A DNA stretch of 64,000 nucleotides from a virus, in IMG/VR virus record IMGVR_UViG_3300042691_047443, positions 1 through 64,000 of that record; one strand, 5' to 3'. The position numbers and the translations under genes were made by a program. This document shows positions 2,759 through 60,950 of the stretch, piece by piece (position 1 is the first letter of the stretch; each line of letters starts with the position of its first letter). The notes under the pieces are model-generated. The model had not been told where the DNA came from. It did not search any database and saw only the letters and a list, made by a program, of their open reading frames with translations.

Positions 2759-2779
2759 TTTCTCATAATAACGTGTGAT

Positions 2780-2953
2780 TTAAATCAACGTCATGTACCT
2801 TGATGAAAACACCTTCACCCTTCCATTCGAAGATAGTACAGTGTAGAAAACACTGTCGCCCCTTCCTACATCATCTCTGCGGCCTAAGACGACACACAAA
2901 AAAGTTTGAAAGGTTACATTGGAATAATATCTGACGAGGTCCCCAGGTTTCAT
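2780..2953 (-). CDS. Short KOW/SH3-like GDLV-family protein (57 aa, below ORF-track cutoff)
   Basis: Translated by hand: MKPGDLVRYYSNVTFQTFLCVVLGRRDDVGRGDSVFYTVLSSNGRVKVFSSRYMTLI*. Confidence 0.7.
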   Translation of the reverse strand: MKPGDLVRYYSNVTFQTFLCVVLGRRDDVGRGDSVFYTVLSSNGRVKVFSSRYMTLI

Positions 2954-2961
2954 TTACTTCC

Positions 2962-2991
2962 ATGATAAGATGTTTAGGTGCGGGTTTTCAC
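2962..2991 (-). promoter_or_regulatory. Sigma70-like promoter upstream of the GDLV array
   Basis: GTGAAA-N18-TATCAT-N8-ATG(2953). Confidence 0.5.
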
Positions 2992-2998
2992 AAGAGAA

Positions 2999-4453: not shown

Positions 4454-4462
4454 TTGTTGACC

Positions 4463-4702
4463 TCAATTTTGCAAATATTCATTTAACCACGAAAGCAACG
4501 TGTCCCTGTCATAATGGATCTTTTCAGGTGCATCCTTGAGCCCATCCCTCAGGTCAGTCAACGCTCCAGTGAGAATAGCATTCTTTGTGTTGCTTTTCTC
4601 CAGCTTGTCGAGACAGATGACCAGATAATCGGTATAAGAATTGAATAGCGCAACCTTTTTCCGAGCGTCTTGTATCCAGTCGACTTCAGAAATTTCAGCC
4701 AT
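4463..4702 (-). CDS. Hypothetical protein
   Basis: Strong RBS AAGGAGG and an upstream promoter. Confidence 0.7.
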   Translation of the reverse strand: MAEISEVDWIQDARKKVALFNSYTDYLVICLDKLEKSNTKNAILTGALTDLRDGLKDAPEKIHYDRDTLLSWLNEYLQN

Positions 4703-4721
4703 GTGAATCCTCCTTAGCGTG

Positions 4722-4751
4722 AATCTAACTCAGTGAAAAAAAGTTTTACAA
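4722..4751 (-). promoter_or_regulatory. Sigma70-like promoter
   Basis: TTGTAA-N18-TAGATT upstream of RBS-led gene at 4702. Confidence 0.5.
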
Positions 4752-4753
4752 GG

Positions 4754-5146
4754 TCAACCCACACCAGGATGGCCGTTAGATCCTGTGAGCGTCATGAAGT
4801 TTCTAACGGGTATTGTGGTGAGCCCACAAAATAACTGATAGTCAACATCAACACCCGCAGAACACGAAATGTACAAAGCACTACACCTTATGTTGTGATG
4901 GACTGTATCACCTTGATCAAGAGTGACAAAATTTCCCGTGTTAAACCCGTTTCTTGTGAATGCAACTGCAATCTTATCTGTTCCCACCGTTCCTTTGTTT
5001 GCAACATCTACAAAGCAACTAACAAATGGAAAACCGTGCTTCTGAATTTCACCATTTGAAATCAAGGAAGACGTCAGATACGGCAACGCTGAAATTTGAT
5101 ACGCTGGAACAAAATGTTCGTCGCTAGATGGCCAATTAATACCCAT
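4754..5146 (-). CDS. Hypothetical beta-rich protein, possibly virion-associated
   Basis: 130 aa ORF; upstream ATAATTA motif 5 nt before ATG. Confidence 0.65.
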   Translation of the reverse strand: MGINWPSSDEHFVPAYQISALPYLTSSLISNGEIQKHGFPFVSCFVDVANKGTVGTDKIAVAFTRNGFNTGNFVTLDQGDTVHHNIRCSALYISCSAGVDVDYQLFCGLTTIPVRNFMTLTGSNGHPGVG

Positions 5147-5177
5147 GCTCTTAATTATATATTGAGGGGAAAATTAT

Positions 5178-6725
5178 ATGTCTGGATTTACATCTCTTGG
5201 AAAGAAAAACGCAGGTGGGACTGGAGACGGTGGTGTCTTCAATGCAAATGCCATTGGCCCATTCGGGACGTCACTTGTGTCCAGCATGACGCCTTCCGGC
5301 CAGGGAACGTTTGTGCATGGCATAAACAGCGCTATCTGGACCACTGGATCCAACGGCAGCGGCGGCCCGACGGTCTCTGCAAGCGATGCCATCGCCACTT
5401 GCACATCAGGCGGTTCTCCATACGCGTCGGCGGTGCTTCGCCTGAACAGAAGCAGCAAATACAGGGCAGGTCAAGGGACCATTGCCAGACTCACTGCAAT
5501 ATTCGGGGGTGGAAGCGCTGACACCCTACAGCTGGCCGGTGTGGGTAACGCTGAGTGTGGTTATTACTTCGCGATGAGCGGCACGAACTTCGGCATTCTT
5601 CACCGCGAAAGATCCAAGAGAGAGATCAGGGAATTCGCAAACGTGACTGGCGTCGGTGCAACCACGTTGACTGTCACCCTCGGCGGTGTGGTGAAGAGCA
5701 TAACCATCGACGGCGGAAGCAACGCAAATCAAACCGCGTACCTGATATCGAAACAAGACTACTCAAGGGTGGGCATGGGTTGGACTGCTGAGGCCCACGG
5801 CGCCAAGGTGCATTTCATCTCCAGCACTCCTGGGCCTGTCGAGGGAACGTTCAGCATCTTCAATGGGGCATCCTCAATCGCAACGACGGCAAGGACGCAA
5901 GCAGGCGTTCTGCCCACAGAGACATTCATCCCTCAATCAAGTTGGAACGTCGATCCAATGGACGGGAATGGTCCCACACGCTTCGACATGGATCCGACCA
6001 AAGGCAATGTATACGGAATAGGTTATCAATTCCTCGGGTTTGGAAATCCAACGTTTAGCGTCGAAAACCCAGAGACTGGACTGTTGGCCCAATGTCACAT
6101 GATACAGTGGGCAGGTTCTCACACGAGCACTGTCTTAAAAAATCCTGCGATGACTATACGATGGGAAGCGATCAACAGCGGGTCTTCAGCATCTTCCGTG
6201 AGTGTCAGCGGGGCATCTGGCGGTTTGTTCACTGAAGGTATCGTCCAGCGAAATGTTGGAGTAGCATTCTCAGCGGCGGGCACAAAGTCCGACATCAGCA
6301 CAACAGAATTGCCCATCTTGACCGTAAGAGCAAACCAAATTTATGGTTCGGTCTGCAGTTATGGTGAGTTGGCCCCTTTTAACATCTCACTCGGCAACGA
6401 AACTGGAAACTCAAGCAGCGGAAAGTTGTTAAGAATAAATCTCTACAAAAATATCGGTTTGACGGGGCCAGTTAATTTTCAGAATCTAGACTCGGCCAGG
6501 TCGATTGCTTCTGTCGATACAACCGCGACCGGTATTTCTACGACGGCAAACCAGCAGCTTCTCAAGAGCATCATCGTGGCAGCAAATGATTCGATTGTGT
6601 TGAAACTTGAGGACGAAAACTTCTTCATCGTCAACGGGGACACCTTAACAATCACTGCGCAACGTGCGGGAGGCTCGAACATTGACACGGCAGCAGCGTC
6701 AGTCTCATGGTTCGAAGATCAGTGA
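5178..6725 (+). CDS. Gly/Ser/Thr-rich beta-structured protein, putative virion structural or fibre-like
   Basis: 515 aa, the only large plus-strand ORF; composition typical of phage structural beta proteins. Confidence 0.6.
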   Translation: MSGFTSLGKKNAGGTGDGGVFNANAIGPFGTSLVSSMTPSGQGTFVHGINSAIWTTGSNGSGGPTVSASDAIATCTSGGSPYASAVLRLNRSSKYRAGQGTIARLTAIFGGGSADTLQLAGVGNAECGYYFAMSGTNFGILHRERSKREIREFANVTGVGATTLTVTLGGVVKSITIDGGSNANQTAYLISKQDYSRVGMGWTAEAHGAKVHFISSTPGPVEGTFSIFNGASSIATTARTQAGVLPTETFIPQSSWNVDPMDGNGPTRFDMDPTKGNVYGIGYQFLGFGNPTFSVENPETGLLAQCHMIQWAGSHTSTVLKNPAMTIRWEAINSGSSASSVSVSGASGGLFTEGIVQRNVGVAFSAAGTKSDISTTELPILTVRANQIYGSVCSYGELAPFNISLGNETGNSSSGKLLRINLYKNIGLTGPVNFQNLDSARSIASVDTTATGISTTANQQLLKSIIVAANDSIVLKLEDENFFIVNGDTLTITAQRAGGSNIDTAAASVSWFEDQ

Positions 6726-13737: not shown

Positions 13738-13954
13738 TTTCTCTAAATATTATCGGTCTGCCGGATAATTCTGTCCAAAGAGCTGCAACTTGAGACTCAA
13801 GTTCAATTTTTGCGATAATGTCTGATTCGCCGAACTTCTTTCTTTCTTGCGAGGGCAACGATTTTAACAACTCGCGTTTTATGATATTCCAGTCATCTAC
13901 GTGACCTGCGTATGCATATACTTCTCTAATTTTATTTATAATCTTTTCATTCAT
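13721..13954 (-). CDS. Hypothetical protein
   Basis: ORF between neighbours; start moved to ATG 13954. Confidence 0.55.
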   Translation of the reverse strand: MNEKIINKIREVYAYAGHVDDWNIIKRELLKSLPSQERKKFGESDIIAKIELESQVAALWTELSGRPIIFRENEKQH

Positions 13955-14411
13955 TTGTTTGGGCCATAATGTTAAGTCGAAGAACATCCAGGGCTTTATC
14001 TATCAGAGGTTTTTGGTAACTTTGTATGGGAGGTAAGTTATCTACACGAAACCACGACGCATCTGCAACCTCAGAATCTGGATCTTTTACGTTCGGTACG
14101 TTATTGCATACCTGCCGCGCGAGATAAGCAATCACCGTTTTTGTCTTGTTTTTCAGTTGAATCTTAACGCTTCCAAGCGGGGATTCAATTTCTACAAGAA
14201 TTCCGGTTTCTTCCTGGGTCTCTCTGATTGCGCATTCTTCGTGCGATTCACCCTTGTTGATTTTACCCTTAGGCATACCCCAGACATCGCTGTCAGAGAA
14301 TTGTTTAATCAGAAGAATTTGTGCATCCTGAAAAGAACGTGACATCTTGTAGGTTATAGACCCGCAGGATGTCACGTTCTTTTCTTCGTTGTTATTCAGT
14401 TTTTTAATCAT
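13947..14411 (-). CDS. NUDIX hydrolase
   Basis: Nudix box PKGKINKGESHEECAIRETQEETG. Confidence 0.9.
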   Translation of the reverse strand: MIKKLNNNEEKNVTSCGSITYKMSRSFQDAQILLIKQFSDSDVWGMPKGKINKGESHEECAIRETQEETGILVEIESPLGSVKIQLKNKTKTVIAYLARQVCNNVPNVKDPDSEVADASWFRVDNLPPIQSYQKPLIDKALDVLRLNIMAQTNE

Positions 14412-15862: not shown

Positions 15863-16255
15863 TTACTCAGTCTTTTTTTTGCTGGAGTATGAATAATAAA
15901 CAATGTCTTTGAAAACTTCATCTGCGTACTTTGCGTACTCCAGATCAAGTTCGGTTATTGTCTCAATATTTTTTGTGAAAAGCTCTAGTTGTAGTGTTTC
16001 TTCTTTTACAACCATGTCAGCATTATGTTGCATTTGCTCCTCGTAGTCCAAGAGAAGCTTGATCATCAGGCTTCTGTCGCCTGACCTACGAAATCTAAAC
16101 GTTTTTACAAGACGTTTTGGGTCATTTTTTTTGACCCACTTATCCATGGGAATGACAGGTAACTCAATGTTTTTAGGTTCGACAGGCAGTCTTCCAAATG
16201 ACATCGGTCTCTTCGAAGATTGAATGTAATTTTCATGTATGGTTTTTAACTTCAT
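15863..16255 (-). CDS. Pterin-4a-carbinolamine dehydratase-like protein (degenerate)
   Basis: W......RLVKTFRF...EQMQHNADM...LFTK....ITELDLEYAK..DE; canonical HHP and TH are altered. Confidence 0.7.
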   Translation of the reverse strand: MKLKTIHENYIQSSKRPMSFGRLPVEPKNIELPVIPMDKWVKKNDPKRLVKTFRFRRSGDRSLMIKLLLDYEEQMQHNADMVVKEETLQLELFTKNIETITELDLEYAKYADEVFKDIVYYSYSSKKKTE

Positions 16256-17007
16256 GGTATGACCATTCCACCGACAACGGCCGCCTCAGTGAAGGAAGAG
16301 CCGTTTGTCCATATTTTTCTATTTCTATCAATGACGCAGGACCCACCCTTGAATTTCAGGTCCCTCTCTTTTCCCACTCGATTAGAGACGATGACATTCG
16401 CTCCAGTCTGTTCTGATAGTTCCACCCAAGAAGAATCAGGATAACCATATGTCGAACCCCAGTTAGTCAACAAGGCTATTGTATCAACCGACCCAGGATA
16501 ATAAAATTTCTGACCCGGCTTATAGAACTTATATGATTCCCTGTATCTGTTCGCAGAATCTCTACAAATGAGAACACCTAACCTGCCCGTCGGCGTATTC
16601 ACAACTGGGTGTAATTCGTCAGATGGTTGTGCCCACATATTATCGCTTCCCCAAAGATTGTGTTTTTGACAATTACCCTCCAATCCATACGGGCCAACAA
16701 TGGCCGCAGAATTGTAAAGCTTATCTTCAGATAGTTCAGGATAGCCGAATATGATGTGACAACCAAACTTTCTCGCAATGGGCACAAAAGATTGCGTCTG
16801 ATAACCGTTCTTAGGTTGAGAACAATCAGACGCCTCGCGTAAATTTCTTAACACGAACCCAGACGTACATAACTCAGGTAAAACAACCACGCGAGCACCC
16901 TTTGCAGCGGCCTCAAACGCCATCTGCTGTGCAATGGCAATGTTGCTTCTTACGTCGTGTAATTTTGGCTCAAATTGAACCGCTGCGACAATGATGGGTG
17001 CCTGCAT
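16252..17007 (-). CDS. Carbon-nitrogen hydrolase (nitrilase superfamily)
   Basis: Catalytic triad motifs VLPELC, QKHNL, LICRD; YNSA; SNRVG.E....F.GGSCVI. Confidence 0.9.
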   Translation of the reverse strand: MQAPIIVAAVQFEPKLHDVRSNIAIAQQMAFEAAAKGARVVVLPELCTSGFVLRNLREASDCSQPKNGYQTQSFVPIARKFGCHIIFGYPELSEDKLYNSAAIVGPYGLEGNCQKHNLWGSDNMWAQPSDELHPVVNTPTGRLGVLICRDSANRYRESYKFYKPGQKFYYPGSVDTIALLTNWGSTYGYPDSSWVELSEQTGANVIVSNRVGKERDLKFKGGSCVIDRNRKIWTNGSSFTEAAVVGGMVIP

Positions 17008-19870: not shown

Positions 19871-20433
19871 CAGGCCCCTCCTCCTCCGCTTGAGCCCGCC
19901 CTATCTGCAAACGGTGCCTGAAATTCATCAGATGATGTATTAGGCGATCCATCGACAGACAAATCGAACTGATCTTCCATGATGTCCTTAAACTTTTCAA
20001 CAACGTCAAGTTCGTAGTTTTTATTGATAAAGTTTGTGGCACGACGTAATATTGTCGTCCTGATCTCAAGCAAAGAATCGTAATTGTCTATTAGGCGAGA
20101 AATGCTGTTTGCAAAATTATTTAAATCTATGTCTTCAATCTTAAGCTTCTCGGCTTTTGTCTCTTCTGCGTCACTGCCACTGCCTGAGTCTTCGTCGCCC
20201 TCTTCTTCATCACCCTCAGCCTCAAGGAGGCGTCGAAGGAGTCTTCTCCAGTCCTTGGACTCGTTTTTTGACATCTTAGACTCTGATTCGTAATCTGATA
20301 GAAATCGATCGATCTGTATATCGATTGAATCATTGCCTCTTTCTTGAGGGGTCTCTTCCGCCTCATTCAAAATTTTTTTTCTTGACTCAGATACGAGTCT
20401 TTTCCATCCTATCTTAGGGCTATAACGCATCAT
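19870..20433 (-). CDS. Acidic hypothetical protein (putative internal virion protein)
   Basis: WKRLVSE..ILNE and WRRLLRRLLE motifs; acidic tracts. Confidence 0.65.
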   Translation of the reverse strand: MMRYSPKIGWKRLVSESRKKILNEAEETPQERGNDSIDIQIDRFLSDYESESKMSKNESKDWRRLLRRLLEAEGDEEEGDEDSGSGSDAEETKAEKLKIEDIDLNNFANSISRLIDNYDSLLEIRTTILRRATNFINKNYELDVVEKFKDIMEDQFDLSVDGSPNTSSDEFQAPFADRAGSSGGGGA

Positions 20434-21155
20434 GATTTCACCGCCTGAGCGATCAACTCTGCGCGCTCCACCCGTTCCTCAATGACGCTCCATTTGAATT
20501 CTTTCATTTGAGAAACAAGATAGCTTTTCTTGTCAGAGAGGTAATCTCTTGTATAGCTGTGCTCCCACATGTCAACGACGATTACTGGAAATACGCCCAA
20601 CATCACGTCTCCACTGTGATGGCTTACGATCATGTTCACAAACCTACGCAAGAACATGTGGTATCCACAGACTGCCCAGCCGTTTCCGGCAGACATTGCT
20701 GTCGCCATGAAGTCCTTTTGCCACGTATCAAAAGTTCCAAAGTCCCTCTGTAGTCGCAGATAGGCCTTGGAATCCATGACAATTTCGCTGTGTGGATCAA
20801 AACAATTTGCAAAATAAAGTTCGTGAAGCCAGACTGCATTGAGGTTATACGACTCATCTAGTTTCAGTGAACGAAATTCAGAGTGACGTGGATTTGCCTC
20901 TGATCGATCTGCGGTATCCAACTTCGAAGAAACGTCGTTCAGCGACTGAATGTAATTCTTGTAGAGGCCTTGGTGCATGTCTTTCGTTTTTTGAGAGACT
21001 AGTTCAGAAACCTGCTTGAATTGCTTCGGTTCTGCAACATATGCTTCATCCAAGGTGCTTCTGTTTTGTGTAACAGATTCTTTGACTGTTTTCTTCAAAA
21101 GCATGTCTAGGTCCGTACTGTCTATGATTGAACGTCCTGAATTAATCGACCTCAT
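20430..21155 (-). CDS. Fe/Mn superoxide dismutase family protein with N-terminal extension
   Basis: Metal-ligand motifs MH, LHELYF, DMWEHSY; RDFGTFD.W..DF; GNGWA. Confidence 0.88.
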   Translation of the reverse strand: MRSINSGRSIIDSTDLDMLLKKTVKESVTQNRSTLDEAYVAEPKQFKQVSELVSQKTKDMHQGLYKNYIQSLNDVSSKLDTADRSEANPRHSEFRSLKLDESYNLNAVWLHELYFANCFDPHSEIVMDSKAYLRLQRDFGTFDTWQKDFMATAMSAGNGWAVCGYHMFLRRFVNMIVSHHSGDVMLGVFPVIVVDMWEHSYTRDYLSDKKSYLVSQMKEFKWSVIEERVERAELIAQAVKS

Positions 21156-21896: not shown

Positions 21897-22483
21897 TTCT
21901 TTAACTTAAGATTAAAAACTGTTGGAAAATGAGTGGCGCACCTGGGTTCGTAAAGTTCATCGCCACCCACCTCAACCACAAATTCATCTCCGCCTAATGT
22001 CTTTTTATGCGTAAAGGGGGCATCATCTCCACAAACGGTGCAAACCGCAGTGCACTTCTCTATCCGGGTTGCCCAAGGCAACATCTGAGAAATTTCAGGG
22101 AAAGGCTTTCCGTTCGATGCCATGTCCAGCGTTGACACGATCACGTTAAAACCACTTTGGTACAAAAAGACAAGAACCTCAGCAATTCCCGGAATCATAA
22201 AGGCTTCATCTACGGCAATAACGTGAGGATCTTCACTTGCATTGGCAAGAAAGTGCAAGATATCTGCGCCTTCTTGCACACAAACTGCAGAATGCCTCCA
22301 TCCACCGTGTGTCATGATTTCAGCAACGCTGTACCTCGTGTCCATGGTGGGTTTAAAAACAGCAACCCTTTCACGTTGATACTTGTAACGTTCCAGGTCC
22401 ATCAATAACCTAGACGTTTTTGAGCTAAACATGGGACCACAGTATACATTAAAGACAGGATTTTTCTGCATCAGATTCCCCAC
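21893..22483 (-). CDS. tdk: Thymidine kinase
   Basis: GPMFSSKT; FKP..DTRY; IAVDEA; CTVC; VGG.ELYEPRC. Confidence 0.93.
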   Translation of the reverse strand: MGNLMQKNPVFNVYCGPMFSSKTSRLLMDLERYKYQRERVAVFKPTMDTRYSVAEIMTHGGWRHSAVCVQEGADILHFLANASEDPHVIAVDEAFMIPGIAEVLVFLYQSGFNVIVSTLDMASNGKPFPEISQMLPWATRIEKCTAVCTVCGDDAPFTHKKTLGGDEFVVEVGGDELYEPRCATHFPTVFNLKLKK

Positions 22484-23070
22484 TAATCTAAGGTATAATT
22501 TTTACATAAGGTGTTCATCAACAAAATATTCAAATTTTCCTTGAATGGCGTCCTGAGCCATTCTGGGATGACATCATGCCAATGGTGAGGCTTATAATTG
22601 TTTCTGTCTGCCGCAACGTTGAAATGCCTATCATAATTAGGACCTTTCTCATGTACGTGACCATGAACAATATGCAAAAAATCACCCAAGGCTGATTCGT
22701 CAAACTTTTTATCGGAAAGTGACTTAAGTGGATAGTGTGACAACGCCACACCCCCTAGGTTAAGATAATCGTAAACAGCGATGAAACCTGAATCTATGTA
22801 CCACTGATCCTGCTGGTGATCGTGATTACCTCTGATCAGGATCTTCTTACCGTTCATTCGCCGGATCAATTCTCTTAATTCTTCAATTCTTCCCTTTAAT
22901 CCGGCCGATATGTCGCCTACAAAAACCCCGACGTCGTTTTCCTCTACCCGAGAGTTCCAGTTCTCTAACATGTGTTCGTTCATTTGGGCTGAGTCCACGA
23001 AGGGCCTGGAACAATACCTGATGATATTTTCGTGAAAATAGTGATTGTCTGATGTGAAATAAACCGTCAT
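22483..23070 (-). CDS. Calcineurin-like metallophosphoesterase
   Basis: TSDNH; GD; GNHD; SHYP; HGHVH. Confidence 0.92.
   Translation of the reverse strand: MTVYFTSDNHYFHENIIRYCSRPFVDSAQMNEHMLENWNSRVEENDVGVFVGDISAGLKGRIEELRELIRRMNGKKILIRGNHDHQQDQWYIDSGFIAVYDYLNLGGVALSHYPLKSLSDKKFDESALGDFLHIVHGHVHEKGPNYDRHFNVAADRNNYKPHHWHDVIPEWLRTPFKENLNILLMNTLCKNYTLD
22490..22518 (-). promoter_or_regulatory. Sigma70-like promoter, leaderless
   Basis: ATGAAC-N17-TACCTT-N6-GTG(22483). Confidence 0.45.
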
Positions 23071-23071
23071 A

Positions 23072-24661
23072 TTAAATTCTCAATGTGTTCCAAATTGTGT
23101 CCTTGTTGTCCTCTGACAGCCAGGATGGTAAATTTTCCTTGAAAATTCTGCTCTCCCCTGAAGAGAGGTAATCTCTCATATCGCTTGCACACAAACCATT
23201 TGTCAACGTCCTTGAGATCGACACGTGTGATAGTCGTTCCTTAAATTGTGGGAGACGTGTGAGGAACGACTCCAACCTTGACTTCGCATCATCGTCGCCA
23301 TCGCCTGTGGAGCCTCCATAGATTGACACAGAACCAGATGCTCCGGTCAAGAATCTTTTTGCAAACAACAAGGCTTCCGTCATAGGAGACCCGGAAAACG
23401 AAGCATAAAGACCCGAGCCGTACATAATTTCCATCTTAGGAAAGTACACGTCCCTCCACAACGTCAGCATGTCATGTGTTGATACGTTTGAACGATCTTT
23501 CGTCGACAAGAACAACATCACTGACTTGCAACCGTCACTAAATGCACGATCAATTAGAGAGGCATGACCAGCGTGAAAAGGCTTTGCAGCCATGGGAATC
23601 AAGGCAACGTTGTCTGACTTGTCAGGTCCCAATAGGTTCAGCTTTGCGGTAAGAAACACATCATCTTGGACACTCAAAAGTGTTTTTATGGAATGTGCTG
23701 GTAGCGTTTTTGTTCGATAAATGCGAGAAGACAGTTCTCCAAAAGTCTCCTGTAGATCACTTATTACGACGTCTTTAGTCATTTCAGCAGCTACTTTGTG
23801 AATAGCTTCCCAGTATGTTTCCTCGTCTCTTTCTGTTGCTTTGAATCTTGATTTCTTTGCGTCTCGTACTTCTTTCAAGTGTTGGTCAGGAGCAAGCACT
23901 TTGCTAAGAGATTTCCCGTCGTCGCCTGTACGTTCAATCACTACACCTTCGGATTGACCACCGAGAACAGATTGAAAATCCTCAAACACGCCTATCAGAC
24001 GTTTCATCACCTCTTCGTGACGATCGAAATCAACGTGTCGAAAAGCCGAAATCAACAATTCTCTAACGCTACCAACAGCCGAACCGAATTCAATCGCCTC
24101 AGGTGCATTCATCCGTCCTTTAAATAAAGTTGGAAATTCACCAAGCTGTAACAATTGTCGATATTTTTCAAAGCGCTGCGCGTCATCGTGAAACATCGAA
24201 GAGCTGTACAGACGACCACGAAACTGTACAAAATTGCAGTCGCCAAAACCCACAAGGAACATGTTGTGTTTCAGCACATAGTCACGAGTAATCGTGGGCT
24301 TATTCTGTACAAACTCAACGAAAAATTCAGTGTTTCTCGGAATCTCTGCACAATCAGGGTGAACCTTCCGTAAATGATCATGCACAAACTTATATTGAGA
24401 CGTGCCGATGGAAAATTCCCGTATCTCGGAATCACGCTCAGCAAGACCACAAAATTCAGTGGCGTGAATGATGTTGTCCTTGTATGACACAATCCAGTTT
24501 TTGGTATAATCGATAGGATCAAATACTTCACAATTTCTGATTAACGTAAGCTTTGTTCCATCAATCTTTTCCACGATCTTCAGGTGACCGTCGAAAAAAA
24601 TCTTTGCCTTGCTTGCGGATGTTATTGTCTTCTTTAAGTCTTTAATCGAAATATCAAGCAT
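23072..24661 (-). CDS. Fusion of ATP-dependent ligase-like adenylation domain and HxGH nucleotidyltransferase domain
   Basis: EKIDGT (motif I), EFFVEF, SEGVVI, KV; C-terminal KPFHAGH and ASDMR. Confidence 0.75.
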   Translation of the reverse strand: MLDISIKDLKKTITSASKAKIFFDGHLKIVEKIDGTKLTLIRNCEVFDPIDYTKNWIVSYKDNIIHATEFCGLAERDSEIREFSIGTSQYKFVHDHLRKVHPDCAEIPRNTEFFVEFVQNKPTITRDYVLKHNMFLVGFGDCNFVQFRGRLYSSSMFHDDAQRFEKYRQLLQLGEFPTLFKGRMNAPEAIEFGSAVGSVRELLISAFRHVDFDRHEEVMKRLIGVFEDFQSVLGGQSEGVVIERTGDDGKSLSKVLAPDQHLKEVRDAKKSRFKATERDEETYWEAIHKVAAEMTKDVVISDLQETFGELSSRIYRTKTLPAHSIKTLLSVQDDVFLTAKLNLLGPDKSDNVALIPMAAKPFHAGHASLIDRAFSDGCKSVMLFLSTKDRSNVSTHDMLTLWRDVYFPKMEIMYGSGLYASFSGSPMTEALLFAKRFLTGASGSVSIYGGSTGDGDDDAKSRLESFLTRLPQFKERLSHVSISRTLTNGLCASDMRDYLSSGESRIFKENLPSWLSEDNKDTIWNTLRI

Positions 24662-25814
24662 TCAACTTCCTATTATAGTACGAAGCGATCATCTTCTCTA
24701 CGTGATGATCATACACCTTCAGAAATTGAAGTTCATTCCTGAACATATTTACCGCAGGCATCTTTGTGCTATAATCATTCGATTCATCAAAAATGTCGAG
24801 GACTTGGCTTTTTTGACCGAAAAGTTTGTGATCTACGAAGTCAAGGTATATGTCACATATAACCTTTTCTTCAAAGAAAGAGTTCAGCAGCGTCAACAGG
24901 CCCAGAAATGATGAGAACAAGTTCAGATCATCTTTAGTCGGGACTCGTGACACGAGCATTTCAAAAATGTCAGATTTACTCCTGACAAAAATAGAATCAC
25001 GTGCCTCAGTCTTTTTATATGCAAATTTTCCCGACACCATGACAGGAGTACAATCACGGTAGAATTGTTGTTCAGCTGCAACTCTCAATCCTTTGTCAAC
25101 AGAAAATGACAAAGTGTGAACATGGTCTGATTTTGCAAGCCTAATTTTTTCGAACGGTTCTAACGGGCTTTGTGGCGTTAACAACACTGCATCATGTCTG
25201 GATGATACAACAGTTGCAATACTTCTCAACAGAAGTTTGTGGAACACGCCTTTGACGCCTGCCTTTACGTCAAACCAATTTGATGACTTAGAAAATTTAA
25301 TGAACTCGAGCGGACCATTAGCATCATATGGTGTCCCTTCAAAATCTATCTGAACCTTTAACTTGTTTAACTCATTGAGTTCATATTCAAAAACAGAATT
25401 TATCTGACCGTTTGTTAATGAAGGCTTCTGACCTAAAAAGCTATGCTTTTCGGTAATTTTTTTACCCTGCATTGAACTAAGAACCTCGGACAGCGCACGT
25501 AAATTATTGTCTGGTACTGTTATGTCAAGATCGCCGATCTTCGGCTTGTATCGAACAAACTCCTCAGAGGAAATACCGTAGTCAAACAAGTGAGATGAAG
25601 AACCGTTGAAAACAGCGCATGTTGAAAAAAGATCGCTCCTCACCCCTTTTGGCCAAAGATTTAGACCGACGTGATCATGATACGCAGAATCTATCTGCTC
25701 AAACAAAAGTAAGAAATCATTCACAAAACGATCCCTATCTAGGATCCTGAAGTCAGGTTTGTCAGGCCTTTGATTGAGTCCATTAACGTCAACAACAACA
25801 ACATTCCCACCCAT
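24654..25814 (-). CDS. Pol-beta superfamily nucleotidyltransferase
   Basis: MGGN start; NGSS...GDLDI...QIDF catalytic pattern. Confidence 0.7.
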   Translation of the reverse strand: MGGNVVVVDVNGLNQRPDKPDFRILDRDRFVNDFLLLFEQIDSAYHDHVGLNLWPKGVRSDLFSTCAVFNGSSSHLFDYGISSEEFVRYKPKIGDLDITVPDNNLRALSEVLSSMQGKKITEKHSFLGQKPSLTNGQINSVFEYELNELNKLKVQIDFEGTPYDANGPLEFIKFSKSSNWFDVKAGVKGVFHKLLLRSIATVVSSRHDAVLLTPQSPLEPFEKIRLAKSDHVHTLSFSVDKGLRVAAEQQFYRDCTPVMVSGKFAYKKTEARDSIFVRSKSDIFEMLVSRVPTKDDLNLFSSFLGLLTLLNSFFEEKVICDIYLDFVDHKLFGQKSQVLDIFDESNDYSTKMPAVNMFRNELQFLKVYDHHVEKMIASYYNRKLNA

Positions 25815-25820
25815 CTTAAT

Positions 25821-26369
25821 TTAATCCTGGTTCAATACTACGAACGGAGATTTTACGCTGGGAGAATACTCCCCTGCGACCGCAAGGGCCCTTTCTATCT
25901 TTTGCTTTGGCGTCAGCGATATGTCATGGTAAAGAACATTCATCGCGCCTAGCGCATATGCAAATCCAGAGCCTGACACTGCAAACTTTTGTCTTAAAGA
26001 ACTTACGTTAAAGTCGGCCTCAATCACGTATATGTTTCCCTTGAATCCAAGAACGATCTCGGAGTCATGAGCATCTCCAGTTTCTTCCTTGAAAAGAACG
26101 CCCTTTGTGTCAAGCAGATTTCTCAGGCACTCCACAAAGTCGCACACTAGATATTCCATGTGTGCCTTATTGTTGAGAAACTTGGGAGGCCTGAGAGACC
26201 AACGTAACAGTTGTCCTATTCTGAAACTGCCTGAAAATCCAATAAGAAACTCACCGTTCTTGAAAACCTTTTCATCTTGACGAATGAGAACCTCATCCTC
26301 CCGATAAGAAGCGGAATCTGCACCCATCCAGATGGAACCATTATCTTCAAGTGCGACAACGCAGGTCAC
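25821..26369 (-). CDS. HslV/proteasome beta-like Ntn protease
   Basis: N-terminal Thr (MTCVVAL), GADS, KV, GFSG, SGSG..YALGAM. Confidence 0.85.
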   Translation of the reverse strand: MTCVVALEDNGSIWMGADSASYREDEVLIRQDEKVFKNGEFLIGFSGSFRIGQLLRWSLRPPKFLNNKAHMEYLVCDFVECLRNLLDTKGVLFKEETGDAHDSEIVLGFKGNIYVIEADFNVSSLRQKFAVSGSGFAYALGAMNVLYHDISLTPKQKIERALAVAGEYSPSVKSPFVVLNQD

Positions 26370-27130
26370 TTGAAAGCCTTTCCATATACAGACTCAGGAT
26401 AAGCGTCTCGATACTTTGACCTTGTAATACTCAACTCGCCAGTTTTCAAAAAGTGATCGACTAGGTAAAAATCTCTCTCATATACATGGATGCTTCCGAC
26501 CTGCCAGTGCAGATTACCTGCAGGATAACCAAGCTCACTCGCTACCTTCTCTAACATATGTTGCTGCCAAGATCTATCATTCTTGTATCCAATTAGCGCA
26601 TCGTTACTACGCATTTGCACGATAGCATGGCACTGTCCATTTCTTATAACATACTGAACTGCGTTGGTACACATGAAATCACTGCGACCGTTTGCGCTGT
26701 AATCTTCCCACATTGAAGGTCTTGTGTAGATGATGATTGCCCGTCGACTTTCTGGGTTCTTCCTCAATTCGCCTACGACCTTTTCGAACTGAGATCCGTT
26801 CTCGGGGCTTCGGACGCACCACCCATAGTTAGAGTTGATCTTACCGTCGGCACAGGCAATTGCACGCCAAACAGCAGGTGCGCCACCGGGAAAATCATTC
26901 ACGTTAAGCGACATGGAGTCATACCACTCTTCTTCACGCTTTACGTAATCATGGTTCACTTCTCCGAAAATAACTTCGTCGCCTGCAATGAAACTGGCAC
27001 CGACAATCTCAATCGTGCGAGACCCCATGAGATTGGTCATTGATGCCTCTCGATTGATGGACGTGAAGTGATTCCCCAAAAATAGATTTGCGAACTCATT
27101 CCTAATATCGATCACATTATTGTAATTCAC
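26366..27130 (-). CDS. dCMP hydroxymethylase (T4 gp42-like thymidylate synthase homologue)
   Basis: INSNYGW, SRRAIIIYTRPSM, SDFMCTN.VQY.IR, MRSND..GYKND, GSIHVY closely match gp42; GTG start chosen by GTGA overlap (ORF track start 27163). Confidence 0.9.
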   Translation of the reverse strand: MNYNNVIDIRNEFANLFLGNHFTSINREASMTNLMGSRTIEIVGASFIAGDEVIFGEVNHDYVKREEEWYDSMSLNVNDFPGGAPAVWRAIACADGKINSNYGWCVRSPENGSQFEKVVGELRKNPESRRAIIIYTRPSMWEDYSANGRSDFMCTNAVQYVIRNGQCHAIVQMRSNDALIGYKNDRSWQQHMLEKVASELGYPAGNLHWQVGSIHVYERDFYLVDHFLKTGELSITRSKYRDAYPESVYGKAFK

Positions 27131-28095
27131 TTGTTTAACCTCATGTTGCTGATCCATGACCAATTGTTATTATACCACTCGATAGTACGTTCCAGACCTT
27201 CCCAGAATCTAACAAGGGGACTATATCCCAACGTTATATGGATACAGTTAACGCTTGCTTGAGTGTGCATCACATCGCCCGAGCGCCATGGTGCATCGTG
27301 GCTTTTTGCATCTGGAAATCTTCCTTTAAGAAACTCAAGGATTTCTTTATTTGTTGTCCTGTCGCCGCAGGCAACATTGAAACAAGCGGCCGCAAGATCG
27401 TTATGGTGCGCTGCTGCACGCACGCAGGCATCTGTCACGTTATCAACGTAGCACATGTCTCGTGACTGTGAACCGTCTCCGTCACTGCGCATCGACATGC
27501 CTTTGTTTATGGCCGTAAGCCACGCAGAAACCGCAGTTGAATATGGAGAATCTCCCAATTGATTTGGTCCGAATACGTTGAAGAACCTCAAGGCAACTGA
27601 ATCAAGTTCGTACAGATCATAATAGATCTTCAGGTAATCTTCAATAATTGACTTCTGCAACGCATAGGGGGACTTTGGGTCCTTCTTTGTGGCTTCAACC
27701 GTTGGAAGCTTTTGAGCCCCACCATAGACAGAGGACGAAGATGCAAACACAAAGCGTTTTACGTTGTTGCGACAGGCTTCCATCAATTGAAGCGTCTTAT
27801 TTACGTTGGTTTCGTGCGTCTCAATGGGGTGTTCCACAGAATAACTCACCCGTGGTACAGCTGCGAGGTGAAAAATCACATCAAACCACTTTGACCTAAT
27901 CCTCGAAAGAACAGACTCAGAAGAAAAGTCTTCCTTTAAAAAGAGATTTGGATTGGCTGCAAAAAGAGGGGGCAAAAATTCCGTGTGACCATTTGAAAGA
28001 TCATCAACACCTGTGACATCCCAACCTTCCTTGAGACACCTTGCTACGAGGTTACTTCCGATAAAACCTGCAGCACCTGTGATCAAAACTCGCAT
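27127..28095 (-). CDS. NAD-dependent NDP-sugar 4-epimerase (extended SDR)
   Basis: GAAGFIG; HLAA; ASSSSVYG; YALQK; RFFNVFGP; SRD..YVDNV. Confidence 0.9.
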   Translation of the reverse strand: MRVLITGAAGFIGSNLVARCLKEGWDVTGVDDLSNGHTEFLPPLFAANPNLFLKEDFSSESVLSRIRSKWFDVIFHLAAVPRVSYSVEHPIETHETNVNKTLQLMEACRNNVKRFVFASSSSVYGGAQKLPTVEATKKDPKSPYALQKSIIEDYLKIYYDLYELDSVALRFFNVFGPNQLGDSPYSTAVSAWLTAINKGMSMRSDGDGSQSRDMCYVDNVTDACVRAAAHHNDLAAACFNVACGDRTTNKEILEFLKGRFPDAKSHDAPWRSGDVMHTQASVNCIHITLGYSPLVRFWEGLERTIEWYNNNWSWISNMRLNK

Positions 28096-28116
28096 CTAAA
28101 TCTCCTGAATGAAACA

Positions 28117-28145
28117 AATTTACAACAGAAAAAGCTCATGTACAC
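28117..28145 (-). promoter_or_regulatory. Sigma70-like promoter
   Basis: GTGTAC-N17-TAAATT then AGGAG RBS. Confidence 0.55.
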
Positions 28146-28150
28146 ATGAC

Positions 28151-29473
28151 TCAAAGTAGGTTCATCTTACGCATTGCATGTGTGGTTGTCGACTCATAGG
28201 AACAACGATCCCTCACAACGTTGAGCAACGGAACCATCGAATTGCACCACTCTTTTGTGCCCTTGTTTTGCTTAACGTGATCTATGAGATTGGACGCAAC
28301 TTCAACTATGTCAGAGAAATCTGACTTTGCTAGAACGGGTACTTTAAACCCAAGCTCAGATGCATCTCGAATGATTCCGGAGTATTCAAAATTATTCAAC
28401 CATAGAGGTAAACAGCCCAATTCTACACACTCTCTGGCGACAGTTCCACCATACGTGTCTTGGTCATACAGGCCTAAAGCGATGTCGACATGCGTTGCAA
28501 CAACCTTGAATTCATCACGTGTAAACGAATCAGGAACAAGAGAGACGTAACCGTTGTGACCGCACTCTGACGTAAGTTCCTCATTGGAGAACTTCTGGCT
28601 TGGGTTCCCAGCAAGAACGACGAAATCATTTCGTCTCTCATGTAAACGTGGAAGTACGTCAAACATGAATTTGCCACAATTTGTGTAATCTGACGATCTT
28701 CCTTTGCCACCGATCCGGTTTGGAACAAAGATAATTGTCTTGCCTTGCTCACGCCATCGATTGAAGACATTGGGATCAAATCGGATCCCATCAAGGTCAG
28801 GCGCGGACCTAATCTCCTCGATCGAATATCCGTCATCCCACGGTGATGATTTTGCCATTACAGCGTCCACGACGCCATCACGGAATAACTTACGTGCCTC
28901 TGCCTCAAATTCAGAAAGCGCGGACCCACATTGCCAAAAGTTCCAATCTGCCTTTAAGGCGGCCTCACATTGACCCAACCACAATGATGCATCAATCGGA
29001 AACTTGGGACAGGACGGCACATCTACAAAGTGTGAATGAACATAAAATTTAGGTTGATATCCACCTTCAAGGAGGAACATCGCCTTAAAGTTTCTAAGGT
29101 GCATCGGATCGTTGAGATACACCGCATCATATCTCACTGTAACTTCCGTCTTGTGCCTTGAAAGACCTAGTCTACGTGACAGCGAAGAAACGTCAAAGTT
29201 GTACCGAGTCGCAAGTGCATTCGGAAAAATGTCATGCTCCACGTAGTGTACACGTGAACCCCATGGAATATCAGGATTTACCTGATACGGTGTGGTGACC
29301 ACAGACCCTTCGGAAAGAAGGGGACCCATAACGTGAATCACGAGATCCGGATTCTGTTTTAGCATTTCACGGACACGACCCATGACCATCTGCCATCCAG
29401 AGTCACACTCAAGGATGAATCTGCCTCGTGTGTCATAGTTAGAAAGTTGTGTTTGAATAAGTAATTTTTTCAT
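28151..29473 (-). CDS. Putative GT-B glycosyltransferase (DNA glycosyltransferase candidate)
   Basis: Two Rossmann-like halves; IIFVPNR; DTYGGTVARECVELGCLPL donor-binding motif; gene context. Confidence 0.65.
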   Translation of the reverse strand: MKKLLIQTQLSNYDTRGRFILECDSGWQMVMGRVREMLKQNPDLVIHVMGPLLSEGSVVTTPYQVNPDIPWGSRVHYVEHDIFPNALATRYNFDVSSLSRRLGLSRHKTEVTVRYDAVYLNDPMHLRNFKAMFLLEGGYQPKFYVHSHFVDVPSCPKFPIDASLWLGQCEAALKADWNFWQCGSALSEFEAEARKLFRDGVVDAVMAKSSPWDDGYSIEEIRSAPDLDGIRFDPNVFNRWREQGKTIIFVPNRIGGKGRSSDYTNCGKFMFDVLPRLHERRNDFVVLAGNPSQKFSNEELTSECGHNGYVSLVPDSFTRDEFKVVATHVDIALGLYDQDTYGGTVARECVELGCLPLWLNNFEYSGIIRDASELGFKVPVLAKSDFSDIVEVASNLIDHVKQNKGTKEWCNSMVPLLNVVRDRCSYESTTTHAMRKMNLL

Positions 29474-29486
29474 GTGTTTCTTTGTG

Positions 29487-30029
29487 TTATCCCAGAAAAG
29501 AAATGATATCAGACACTTCTCTGTCTAGATTTTCGTCGTCGACATTCAGCTTCATATAATCACAGGCTGTGATTTCATGTAGGTATTTTTCATAGTGATC
29601 GTCTAGCTTCTGCAGGGTTTCTTGCTGAATTCTAGAATCTAGATCATCAATGATTCCTGTGTACGAACTTCTGCGACAAAAGATTATTTTTGCCCCCAAG
29701 GATGCCCACTGCTTGTCCATGTGGACAAGAAACTTCTCATCAGTCTTGCGATGAAACACGGATGAATAGACCCATTCACACGGAAAACCCCTGTCAAATA
29801 TAACTCCGTAACCGGTCTGCTTCAAAAGATCAAGTACGCGAGGATCGGCATGCCGCAATTGTGACAGAAACAATTCATTTTTGTCATCCATCGACAAAAA
29901 CGATGAATGTTCAGAGGAGGCCTTAAAATAAGGAACACTTAGTCGGACCGACAACTCTTTTGCAATCTGTGTCTTGCCACACATATCAGGACCAACCATG
30001 AACACTAAACGTTGTTTTTGTTTCAACAT
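29487..30029 (-). CDS. dNMP kinase (thymidylate kinase-like)
   Basis: P-loop GPDMCGKT; IFDRG..CEWVY. Confidence 0.85.
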   Translation of the reverse strand: MLKQKQRLVFMVGPDMCGKTQIAKELSVRLSVPYFKASSEHSSFLSMDDKNELFLSQLRHADPRVLDLLKQTGYGVIFDRGFPCEWVYSSVFHRKTDEKFLVHMDKQWASLGAKIIFCRRSSYTGIIDDLDSRIQQETLQKLDDHYEKYLHEITACDYMKLNVDDENLDREVSDIISFLG

Positions 30030-34504: not shown

Positions 34505-34534
34505 ATCATAACTTGTGTCAATGCTAGTTTACAC
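34505..34534 (-). promoter_or_regulatory. Sigma70-like promoter, leaderless
   Basis: GTGTAA-N18-TATGAT-N6-ATG(34498). Confidence 0.65.
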
Positions 34535-35531
34535 TAGAAAGTTCTTCCATGAACCACTTGATCGTACGACGGACCCCTTCCTCAAGGTCTACGGTGGGTT
34601 CCCATCCAAGAATCTCTTTTGCACGAGAAATGTCAGGTCTTCTCTGAAGAGGATCATCCTTGGGCAGGGGCATGTTGATCAATTCGGGTTTTGTCGCACC
34701 ATACAACAGGCGATTCACGAGGAGGGCAAGATCCATTACTGTGAACTCTGCGGGATTTCCAAGATTGATCGGCCCCCCTGGATTTTTCGACAGTCCTGCG
34801 AGTGTCGTGATGCCCCTGATCAAATCAGACACATAGCAAAAACTTCGGGTCTGCTTTCCACCGCCGTAGATGGTGTATGGCTGCCTCTTCAAGGCCTGAA
34901 CAATGAAATTACTGACGACTCGACCGTCAAGGGGATCCATGTTTTCGCCGTACGTGTTGAATATCCTGACGAGTCTTGCATCAACACCGTGCTTGTGCAG
35001 ATAATCGTAACACAAGGCCTCAGCGGCGCGCTTTCCTTCATCGTAACAGGATCTTGGGCCATATGAATTGACGTTTCCCTTGTAGGATTCCGACTGTGGC
35101 GAGACGTCTGGGTCTCCGTACACTTCAGACGTTGACGCGTGAACAAACACAGAATTGTGCTTTCGAGCAACATCCAGTATGTTTACGGTGCCTGCGGTAC
35201 AGGTAAGAAGCGTCTCGACGGGAATCTCCTGATATCTAGGAGGTGACGCAGGACACGCAAAGTTGTATATCAGGTCGATTTTTCCACCGTTTGTAGTAAT
35301 GAAATCATCAACTGCCGCGACGACGTCAAGTGTTGAACATATGTCAACTTTTCGAATCATTGCACGTTCAGGACTGTACATCTTGCGCACAAACATCGAA
35401 TGATGAGAATCTTCTCGGGAGGAGGAATAGTTGTCAAGTCCTAACACATTGTCACCAGCCTTTAAGTGATGAATCGTGAGATGACTTCCGAGAAAACCAG
35501 CCGCACCAGTGATCATAACATTCTTACCCAT
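34524..35531 (-). CDS. UDP-glucuronate decarboxylase (UDP-xylose synthase)
   Basis: GAAGFLG; ACPASPPRYQ; ASTSEVYGDP; GNVN..GPRSCYDEGKR; RIFNTYG; DGRVVSNFIVQAL; QTRSFCYVSD; DDP..RRPDI. Confidence 0.92.
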   Translation of the reverse strand: MGKNVMITGAAGFLGSHLTIHHLKAGDNVLGLDNYSSSREDSHHSMFVRKMYSPERAMIRKVDICSTLDVVAAVDDFITTNGGKIDLIYNFACPASPPRYQEIPVETLLTCTAGTVNILDVARKHNSVFVHASTSEVYGDPDVSPQSESYKGNVNSYGPRSCYDEGKRAAEALCYDYLHKHGVDARLVRIFNTYGENMDPLDGRVVSNFIVQALKRQPYTIYGGGKQTRSFCYVSDLIRGITTLAGLSKNPGGPINLGNPAEFTVMDLALLVNRLLYGATKPELINMPLPKDDPLQRRPDISRAKEILGWEPTVDLEEGVRRTIKWFMEELSSVN

Positions 35532-35567
35532 AACCATCCTTTGCTCAAGATTAAAGAGCGCAAAATT

Positions 35568-35596
35568 ACTATATAATAAGTGTACAATGTGTACAA
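35568..35596 (-). promoter_or_regulatory. Sigma70-like promoter
   Basis: TTGTAC-N17-TATAGT. Confidence 0.55.
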
Positions 35597-35605
35597 GGAA
35601 CAAAC

Positions 35606-41114: not shown

Positions 41115-41774
41115 TCATTCAAATGGCGGACAGGTGCTACCGTCTTCCAGGATCAACCCATGAGCCCGAAGACTAAGATCAAACTTACCAGTGTCACGAA
41201 CACACTCCAGCATTTTATACGCAACCTCTCTGATCTCCAACTGCGCATGCTTCGAGTACCTCAATTGCAAAAAATGGACAAAGCTTCTAAAATTAAACAT
41301 AACATCAGCTGTCAGCTGAACACCGTATGGAAGATAAAGTCGAGCTGATTCTTTGGCACGCTTTCTTGGTAAACCCTTGTCAATCAGGCGCTGAAGCGTC
41401 TCATGATAATTCTTAAGAGAAAGATTCAAGTGCTCAATGTATCGAGTCTTCTCTTCATCGTCCCAATCAACAGGAACATAAAACTTGTCATCCTTCAACT
41501 CCTTATAACGAGCTGACTCACCGTTAAGAGACACACCTGCTCGATGCTTGATAAGGTGAATGTGGGAAGCAATGTCGGTGGTGACAAGAAAATGGATGCT
41601 CGACTTTTCAAACGGCGTTCCGTGATTGTCACGAGCCAACATATTTAAGAGATTACCAATCCTGGAACGTTTTTCGTCGGTTAGGTCTCTTGAGGTGGAG
41701 GTCCATGCTGAAAGAGCATGAGTTTCATCTCCGCCATAAAATCCAATCAACTCTACTTTATTTTCATTCAGCAT
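41115..41774 (-). CDS. thyX: FAD-dependent thymidylate synthase
   Basis: HGTPFE; KHR...SLNGESARY; KESARLYLP; NFRS..HF..LR...HAQLEIR. Confidence 0.93.
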   Translation of the reverse strand: MLNENKVELIGFYGGDETHALSAWTSTSRDLTDEKRSRIGNLLNMLARDNHGTPFEKSSIHFLVTTDIASHIHLIKHRAGVSLNGESARYKELKDDKFYVPVDWDDEEKTRYIEHLNLSLKNYHETLQRLIDKGLPRKRAKESARLYLPYGVQLTADVMFNFRSFVHFLQLRYSKHAQLEIREVAYKMLECVRDTGKFDLSLRAHGLILEDGSTCPPFE

Positions 41775-57055: not shown

Positions 57056-57058
57056 TGA

Positions 57059-60949: not shown

Positions 60950-60950
60950 C

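Follow-up and report, generated by a model that had tools for sequence, protein, structure and literature searches.

A virus-restricted nucleotidyltransferase and ligase pair as a candidate system for the repair of polynucleotide breaks

The pairing of an RNA ligase with a nucleotidyltransferase of the Pol-beta type is familiar from the editosome, in which the ligase REL1 works with the terminal uridylyltransferase (TUTase) RET2. A second pairing of this kind involves the nucleotidyltransferase RlaP, reportedly named by Burroughs and Aravind in 2016. The genes for RlaP enzymes neighbour those for RNA ligases, and the enzymes extend damaged RNA 3' ends by 1-2 nucleotides (PMC12776372), a step proposed to come before ligation in jumbo phages, and RlaP/RNA-ligase pairs are common in large phages (PMC7824862). 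Here we describe two phage genes, POLB, encoding a Pol-beta-superfamily nucleotidyltransferase, and LIGNT, encoding a protein in which a ligase domain is followed by a HIGH-signature nucleotidylyltransferase domain (hereafter HIGH). Both lie in the first 64,000 nucleotides (nt; hereafter the window) of the virus record IMGVR_UViG_3300042691_047443, in a run of four abutting or overlapping minus-strand open reading frames (ORFs) at positions 22483-26369 that also encodes an HslV-like Ntn peptidase and a calcineurin-like metallophosphoesterase, MPE (Table 1). The original prediction, made from the sequence of this stretch, had taken the four genes as one module, with anti-defence RNA or tRNA repair, nucleotide or cofactor regeneration and reversible protein nucleotidylation as candidate functions. 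The four ORFs are there as described, as are three nucleotidyl-transfer folds and a calcineurin-type phosphoesterase, and the motifs that had been noticed (GS..DxD..D in POLB, KxDG with EGVV and then HAGH in LIGNT) occur in the translations and are conserved among homologues; across 80 related loci, on the other hand, only POLB and LIGNT travel together. Our results indicate that these two genes form a real, conserved and virus-only enzyme system, which we read, at about even confidence, as a two-gene, three-domain machinery that heals, fills and seals polynucleotide breaks and that carries an as yet unexplained adenylyltransferase domain.

Like the RlaP/RNA-ligase pairs, the locus ties a Pol-beta-type nucleotidyltransferase genetically to an RNA ligase, and by analogy the same logic of restoring the 3' end and then ligating may apply. 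It differs from them in that POLB has no detectable relation to PF10127, the ligase has an obligatory HIGH domain, and single-polypeptide fusions occur in many lineages. The REL1/RET2 combination is the same enzyme pairing as LIGNT and POLB, and the ligase part of LIGNT (residues 1-269) shares with T4 Rnl2, NgrRnl (Rnl5) and REL1 its fold (Z 10.1-9.1 over 181-199 amino acids (aa)), the KxDG and EG(V)V motifs and a motif V lysine, whereas identity to these enzymes is only 14-17% and none of them has the C-terminal HIGH domain that LIGNT adds. Motif V of T4 Rnl2 is a KxK pair, as opposed to a single invariant Lys in LIGNT (K254, 83 of 83 homologues). With Clostridium thermocellum Pnkp and T4 Pnkp/Rnl1, the wider family of loci shares the combination of a ligase, a calcineurin-type phosphoesterase and a P-loop kinase, the kinase being found in three relatives (L060, L049 and L080); unlike those systems, the window has the ligase and MPE only, and POLB and HIGH have no Pnkp counterpart.

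Table 1. Positions in the window of the genes and domains discussed
Feature	Position	Strand	Length or remark
HslV-like Ntn peptidase	25821-26369	-	182 aa
POLB, Pol-beta-superfamily nucleotidyltransferase	24654-25814	-	386 aa
LIGNT, ligase + HIGH nucleotidyltransferase	23072-24661	-	529 aa
LIGNT residues 1-345, predicted Rnl2/Rnl5-like ATP-dependent ligase domain followed by helical subdomain	23627-24661	-	
LIGNT residues 346-529 and stop codon, predicted HIGH-signature nucleotidylyltransferase, PPAT/NMNAT-like	23072-23626	-	
MPE, calcineurin-like metallophosphoesterase	22483-23070	-	195 aa
Thymidylate and nucleotide-sugar gene set	26366-30029, 34524-35603, 41115-41774, 48342-48848		
Fe/Mn superoxide dismutase homologue	20430-21155		Sod_Fe_C E 2e-17; kept in syntenic relative L006
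Three consecutive very large ORFs	53831-63977		1074, 1103 and 1008 aa; no PHROG match
Pentapeptide-repeat protein (484 aa), Nudix hydrolase, carbon-nitrogen hydrolase (nitrilase / NAD-synthase glutaminase-like)	2999-4453; 13947-14411; 16252-17007		

Linkage, fusion and distribution of POLB and LIGNT

The 80 related loci were obtained by scanning IMG/VR with a LIGNT alignment and were searched with hidden Markov models built from our own alignments. POLB lies directly upstream of LIGNT in 42 of them and is fused with it in a single ORF in 26, so that the two are adjacent or fused in 68 of the 80; in four more POLB is found elsewhere in the locus, and in eight it was not found, three of these having less than 100 nt of upstream sequence. 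The fused ORFs (961-1350 aa) run in the order ligase, HIGH and then POLB, with 0 to ~400 aa before the POLB part. Since neighbouring genes stand in the opposite order, simple read-through from one into the next does not account for the fusions. LIGNT and POLB are found together in 6 Vibrio phages and 11 Campylobacter (Firehammervirus) phages of GenBank; the distance between them is 1.3 kb in Va1 and 65 kb in CP220, so that the two co-occur even without adjacency. The conservation of the gene neighbourhood that the original prediction had proposed to check therefore holds for POLB and LIGNT and fails for the genes on either side, with MPE in 10 of the 80 loci and the HslV-like gene in one.

The POLB family is abundant. 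A profile search of 1.84 billion representative proteins returned 754 clusters (50% identity) at E <= 1e-3, 495 of them at E <= 1e-30; almost all are viral and none has an assigned function. Among 143 newly returned representatives, 40 are at least 480 aa long, and these 40 include three POLB-ligase-HIGH fusions (P0208, P0239 and P0300), two HIGH-POLB fusions without a ligase (P0292 and P0275), one kinase-POLB fusion (P0163) and one POLB-kinase fusion (P0230). The linkage, the fusions, the folds of the models and the conserved catalytic residues described below are direct observations, and three nucleotidyl-transfer domains that keep their catalytic residues and recur in many gene and fusion orders are among the strongest comparative evidence for a shared pathway. 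LIGNT is encoded by only four contigs of metagenome-assembled genomes, in a collection with one genome for each of 185,579 prokaryotic species, and the family is accordingly essentially virus-only; the Atlas clusters, too, are 94-100% viral. No description of the POLB/LIGNT architecture was found in the literature searched, the 2016 survey by Burroughs and Aravind, which might mention the family, lying outside that search. New here are the two fusion orders, the HIGH-POLB and kinase-POLB fusions and the kinase and CCA-enzyme accessories, together with the exclusion of the peptidase, the whole-record tests and the structural-gene neighbourhoods that are taken up below.

Variant forms of the system were also seen. 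In two Xanthomonas phages a POLB homologue is followed two genes downstream by a separate HIGH protein; in phage BUDD the POLB homologue matches at E 8e-56 and the 162-aa HIGH protein at E 3e-9. A 286-aa intervening protein of BUDD was considered as a ligase, KLDG and EGVVI being visible by eye, and is not claimed as one, hhalign aligning 22 columns with a probability of 3.6%. Between the POLB homologue and these candidate ligase and HIGH genes, BUDD also encodes a 333-aa protein without a family match (L084, 5840-6841). Some POLB proteins are giants: P0286 (1304 aa) and P0291 (2078 aa) carry Amidoligase_2 domains, and in these two and in P0301 (1528 aa) the POLB domain comes first and is followed by Amidoligase_2, second NTP_transf_2 and DUF6934 domains. 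The LIGNT homologue of L035 is extended at its N terminus by 199 aa and lacks a POLB within 6.7 kb; 17 tRNA genes lie ~1.2 kb upstream of it (2652-5188). In several phage clades that are not related to one another (L010-L034, L037-L074, L038/L039/L042, L002 and L001), the pair stands inside blocks of head, tail or packaging genes, among them those for the major head protein, the tail sheath, the large subunit of terminase, the portal and tail fibres.

Predicted enzyme domains

The catalytic residues of POLB (G71-S72, D95xD97 and D157) are kept in 71 of 72 homologues. The protein belongs to phrog_19290 (E 9e-39), annotated in PHROGs as 'function unknown', and has no Pfam and no NCBIfam match; phmmer against PDB sequences returned nothing at E <= 1, and the family profile returned no polymerase from the same sequences at E <= 10, the matches being chance-level repeat proteins. 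Its AlphaFold 2 (AF2) model (pLDDT 92.9) has a Pol-beta palm and a thumb-like part, to which a C-terminal helical hairpin (residues 315-386) is added. The top Foldseek matches are Pol lambda and Pol beta (E 2.5e-4), giant-virus PolX is among the BFVD matches, and VIA aligns the model with TUT7 (Z 7.9, 103 aa), with TdT and Pol beta (both Z 7.8, 177 aa) and with African swine fever virus (ASFV) PolX (Z 7.0, 167 of 176 aa, root-mean-square deviation (rmsd) 3.6). With the family X polymerases Pol beta, Pol lambda and ASFV PolX it thus shares the GS...DxD...D palm and a second subdomain over 167-182 aligned aa; it departs from them in reaching only Z 7.0-7.8, in lacking a sequence-level match and recognisable 8-kDa and helix-hairpin-helix (HhH) parts, and in having the extra hairpin. 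On the model, POLB is predicted to have a Pol-beta-superfamily fold, at a level of similarity (all Z below 8) that points to no one subfamily. A lead to DUF6267 (PF19782), taken from an Atlas row of 990-aa viral proteins, was dropped, the domain being found in none of five records and control genomes being negative too. In Atlas, an archaeal (Methanobacteriota) cluster of 600-aa proteins with a PDDEXK_1 nuclease domain aligns structurally with POLB (TM 0.55) and may be a cellular POLB relative fused to a nuclease.

LIGNT belongs to phrog_27149, which PHROGs lists under 'unknown function', and the fusion of a ligase to an HxGH domain, which the original prediction could not place in a pathway, proves to be a real and conserved architecture. 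Motif I reads E31-K32-I-D34-G35-T-K37, with K32, D34 and G35 kept in all 83 homologues; E238 and G239 of the EGVV motif (residues 238-241) are likewise invariant (83/83), and E112 and E116 are conserved. In the AF2 model, built from a 35-sequence alignment (pLDDT 92.5, pTM 0.89), residues 263-345 are helical, and VIA matches residues 1-269 to NgrRnl (Z 10.1, 188 aa, rmsd 4.1), T4 Rnl2 (Z 10.0, 181 aa, rmsd 4.3), REL1 (Z 9.1) and Trl1 (Z 8.4). Foldseek also finds T4 Rnl2 (E 7e-8). The top fold matches of the ligase domain are all RNA ligases, the sole entry titled DNA ligase being 3qwu ('putative', Z 7.9). At the level of sequence the relation is distant: the window LIGNT has no PF09414 match at E <= 0.01, a fused homologue scores 21.5 bits where the cut-off is 27, a precomputed PF09414 label stands on 5 of 120 LIGNT homologues among the matches listed, and phmmer against PDB sequences gave nothing at E <= 1. 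The N-terminal domain is, on its modelled fold, predicted to be an Rnl2/Rnl5-like ligase, and the structural matches for both POLB and the LIGNT domains agree with the domain calls.

The HIGH domain retains H363-A-G-H366, in which H366 is found in 83 of 83 homologues and H363 in 60, the other 23 having Thr. R496, the C-terminal ISxTxxR-type arginine, is kept in 65 of 83, and the motif around it reads CAS-DMR in the window against a family consensus of SGT-xMR. Residues 349-529 match PPAT at Z 13.7 (153 of 157 aa, rmsd 2.7), NadM at Z 12.4 and NadD at Z 12.2, the PPAT and NMNAT matches being tied within ~1.5 Z, and the LIGNT family profile finds PPAT (E 8e-6) and archaeal NMNAT (E 2e-5) among PDB sequences. 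The sole informative Pfam match of the window protein is PF08218, the HIGH region of citrate lyase ligase (23.4 bits over 48 residues); PF01467 is not reached. The domain thus resembles PPAT (CoaD) and the NMNATs (NadM/NadD/NadR) over nearly the whole fold, in the H/TxGH motif and in the C-terminal ISxTxxR-like arginine, and differs from them in its constant company, since all architectures seen have it fused or linked to a ligase and/or POLB. The predicted HIGH domain is always kept with the pair, with its catalytic residues intact. That it is joined to the ligase, and in certain lineages straight to POLB, argues that it would work on the same substrate as these two enzymes or feed them.

Possible functions of the pair

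In the repair scheme that we favour, dirty ends would be cleaned by an accessory phosphoesterase (MPE in the window), which would strip 3'-phosphate or cyclic-phosphate groups; the 5' end would, in those relatives that have one, be phosphorylated by a P-loop kinase; POLB would add the missing nucleotide or nucleotides onto the 3'-OH; and the Rnl2/Rnl5-like domain would seal the resulting nick through a Lys32-AMP intermediate. We infer the substrates, the order of the steps and the choice between RNA and DNA, and for the target we lean toward RNA or a ribo-terminated nick. The accessories of related loci agree with this scheme, and to that extent the repair function first suggested for the locus is upheld: heal-and-seal fits the MPE, the AAA_33-class kinase and the CCA-adding enzyme with an HD domain that relatives carry. 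MPE has the motifs SDNHYFH, VGDIS, RGNHDH and HGHVH (DxH / GD / GNHD / GHxH) and matches phrog_547 (E 1.4e-39) and PDB 1XM7 (Aquifex aq_1665, E 6.4e-9); it has no Pfam Metallophos match at E <= 0.01, and its best NCBIfam match, to PdeM, is weak (24.5 bits against a cut-off of 150). In four of the 10 loci that have it, its distance downstream of LIGNT is 0.5-1.6 kb, and in the other six, the closest relatives L004-L009, the two genes abut. As an accessory it is clade-specific, and it is likely to heal ends. A P-loop kinase of the AAA_33/Zeta polynucleotide-kinase class is found in three loci, free-standing in L060 (37.2 bits), within a 472-aa protein in L049 and fused to the LIGNT N terminus in L080, and only L060 and L049 have the full trio of ligase, MPE and kinase. 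L044 encodes a CCA-adding enzyme that has an HD domain. Variant loci carry such repair-type genes inserted between LIGNT and MPE, and the Vibrio phages have an annotated tRNA nucleotidyltransferase ~3 kb upstream. The P-loop protein of the window (29487-30029) is unrelated to the L060, L049 and L080 kinases, and BLAST among the downstream neighbours revealed no cross-clade homology that would indicate a third partner common to the clades.

The role of LIGNT relative to other ligases was addressed in the whole records of five carriers, namely BUDD, Va1, CP220 and two further records of 278 kb (84% complete) and 185 kb (78% complete). All five encode an ATP-dependent DNA ligase elsewhere, four have Rnl1, one has NadV (PF04095) and none has KptA, and a six-frame PF10127 search found RlaP in none of four phage records. 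LIGNT is therefore an additional, specialised ligase, which is not replicative and not part of a standard NAD+ salvage or Tpt1 pathway.

Several observations weigh against the repair scheme. Three large clades have the pair in a virion or packaging setting: in 24 loci its flanking genes are those for the major head and tail sheath proteins, the 26 loci of the fused clade have terminase and portal genes next to it, and in nine loci its neighbours are tail-fibre-like genes. In CP220 and Va1 it is near virion genes too. Such a setting is not what the tRNA-repair reading predicts. In the window the pair sits among nucleotide-metabolism genes. tRNA genes are near the pair in one (L035) of 60 loci scanned of 90. 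Because the carriers have Rnl1 (4/5) and a DNA ligase (5/5), LIGNT would be unneeded for classical repair. The search for RlaP in these phages was negative, as just described, and POLB does not itself pass for an RlaP by sequence, PF10127 matching 0 of 30 family members at E <= 1 and hhalign giving a probability of 0.1% between the POLB profile and an RlaP found in L090. All structural matches of POLB fall below Z 8, with TUTases, family X polymerases and cGAS-like enzymes tied, and the widest overlap is with family X DNA polymerases. The kinase (3/80) and the CCA-adding enzyme (1/80) are rare, and to our knowledge none of the known heal-and-seal pathways makes use of a HIGH domain.

What HIGH might contribute can be framed by its relatives. 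Our first guess is the transfer of AMP to a terminal phosphate, or its removal, on an A5'pp5'N-type end resembling NAD or dephospho-CoA; it is possible that HIGH supplies a nucleotide cofactor instead. We offer, as a doubtful proposal, that HIGH acts directly on polynucleotide ends as the obligatory third activity of a ligase/polymerase repair machine that many phages, with its genes next to those for packaging and the virion, would deploy late. In variants of this proposal it could dispense with a lysine intermediate in forming or resolving A5'pp5'N ends, or it could mark the junction against recutting, by analogy with Hen1, which marks the Pnkp-repaired junction so that recutting is blocked. 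If repair is the true function, a new nucleotidyltransferase family and a new ligase architecture would join the phage counter-measures against RNA- or DNA-cutting defences. If HIGH works on polynucleotide ends, this would be new enzymology, possibly useful for ligation or adenylylation tools, and if it makes or resolves A5'pp5'N ends or marks junctions, it would represent a repair chemistry not yet described.

Two rivals to the repair scheme stay serious because of the structural-gene neighbours, the scarcity of tRNA genes and the overlap of POLB with PolX. The better placed of them, which we regard as unlikely, is late repair of DNA gaps and nicks, analogous to LigD or to eukaryotic single-strand-break repair. 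POLB would fill gaps, possibly with ribonucleotides, the ligase would seal 3'-ribo nicks and MPE would trim 3' ends, readying concatemeric or injected phage DNA for packaging or circularisation. This would suit the placement of the pair among head, sheath, terminase, portal and tail-fibre genes, the breadth of the POLB alignments with ASFV PolX and Pol beta, its top Foldseek matches and the giant-virus PolX in BFVD. PdeM, the best NCBIfam match of MPE, although far below cut-off, is a ligase-associated protein of the DNA-damage response, and Rnl2/Rnl5-type ligases seal duplex nicks with a 3'-OH ribonucleotide. On the other hand, the top fold matches of the ligase domain are RNA ligases without exception, each of the five records has a separate ATP-dependent DNA ligase, one variant locus contains a CCA-adding enzyme, and the PolX 8-kDa and HhH parts are not seen in POLB, all of whose matches are below Z 8.

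The other serious rival, less probable again, is a tagging or modification machine, in which a small molecule, once turned by HIGH into an activated NDP- or acyl-adenylate (as in TagD, CitC and TmcAL), would be passed on by POLB and/or the ligase to nucleic acid, a virion component or protein. The best Pfam and NCBIfam matches of HIGH are to citrate lyase ligase, only around the HxGH region, and TmcAL matches at Z 9.3; HIGH-POLB fusions without a ligase, the Amidoligase_2 domains of P0286 and P0291 and the virion-gene neighbours of many clades would also be in keeping with such a function. However, the ligase fold and motifs are those of a polynucleotide ligase, and the kinase and MPE accessories fit end healing. 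LicD/fukutin-type transferases are absent from the top 50 structural matches of POLB, which is inconclusive.

Regeneration of a nucleotide cofactor, also raised in the original prediction, fares worse and we consider it improbable. HIGH would here be a phage NMNAT or PPAT making NAD+ or dephospho-CoA, with the ligase and POLB secondary, and its product would counter NAD+ depletion or feed an NAD-dependent step. The nearly full-length matches to PPAT, NadM and NadD (Z 13.7 to 12.2) and the profile matches to PPAT/NMNAT sequences (E ~1e-5) agree with it, and phage salvage by NadV with NadM or NadR is known (PMC9503650). It is at odds with the distribution of NadV (1/5) and KptA (0/5) in whole records, with the constant fusion or linkage of HIGH to the ligase or POLB, which a free-standing metabolic enzyme would not need, and with the invariance of the ligase and POLB catalytic residues. 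Reversible protein nucleotidylation, the remaining suggestion, is supported by no result here.

That the protease, the three transferases and the phosphoesterase act as one four-gene module is very improbable, since they abut in the window and in one syntenic relative (L006) whereas the HslV-like gene adjoins the pair in one locus of 80, and in one of six in the closest clade (L004-L009), and the tight packing of the window runs on into unrelated nucleotide-metabolism genes. The spacing within the four genes is a 6-nt gap between peptidase and POLB, an 8-nt overlap of POLB and LIGNT and a 1-nt gap between LIGNT and MPE. The flanks are equally tight, the ThyA-like gene overlapping the peptidase gene by 4 nt and the thymidine kinase gene overlapping MPE by 1 nt, and promoter-like sites (24 against 21.8 expected) and terminator-like sites (11 against 9.9) are at chance level; packing alone therefore delimits no module. 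The peptidase, which begins MTCVV with Thr directly after the initiator Met, matches phrog_1040 (E 8e-21) and, weakly, HslV 1M4Y (E 7.4e-6), with which its GSGF-YALGA segment aligns, and scores 17.6 bits against Pfam Proteasome, below the 22.4 cut-off. Because the only locus in which it recurs beside the pair is L006, which is syntenic with the window from the superoxide dismutase homologue to the P-loop protein, we read it as a bystander outside the conserved system. On the anti-defence role first suggested for the locus, the PADLOC models gave nothing meaningful: at E <= 0.01 there is no match to POLB, to LIGNT or to the peptidase, and MPE has two weak ones (E 0.0027 and 0.0062).

The phage record and its other genes

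The window is the first part of a 76,489-base record whose completeness CheckV estimates at 23%, and the phage genome is therefore probably in the jumbo range. At the DNA level, blastn gave no match of the region to GenBank phages. Nearly all genes of the window are on the minus strand, no tRNA genes were found in its 64 kb, and its replication genes include Pol III alpha, RNR, DnaB, UvsX and SSB. A sub-threshold match to Baculo_PEP_C on the 1008-aa ORF is the sole Pfam match among the three giant ORFs. Besides the Fe/Mn superoxide dismutase homologue, the window encodes a set of enzymes of nucleotide metabolism and nucleotide sugars. Both ThyX (PF02511, E 7e-35) and a divergent ThyA-like protein (PF00303, E 1e-14) are present, and near the thymidylate genes are those for a dCMP deaminase, a thymidine kinase, a dUTPase, a P-loop kinase, two NDP-sugar epimerase/dehydratases and a 440-aa protein without a family match. 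Together, this gene set looks like a pathway for a modified, perhaps glycosylated hydroxymethyl, DNA pyrimidine.

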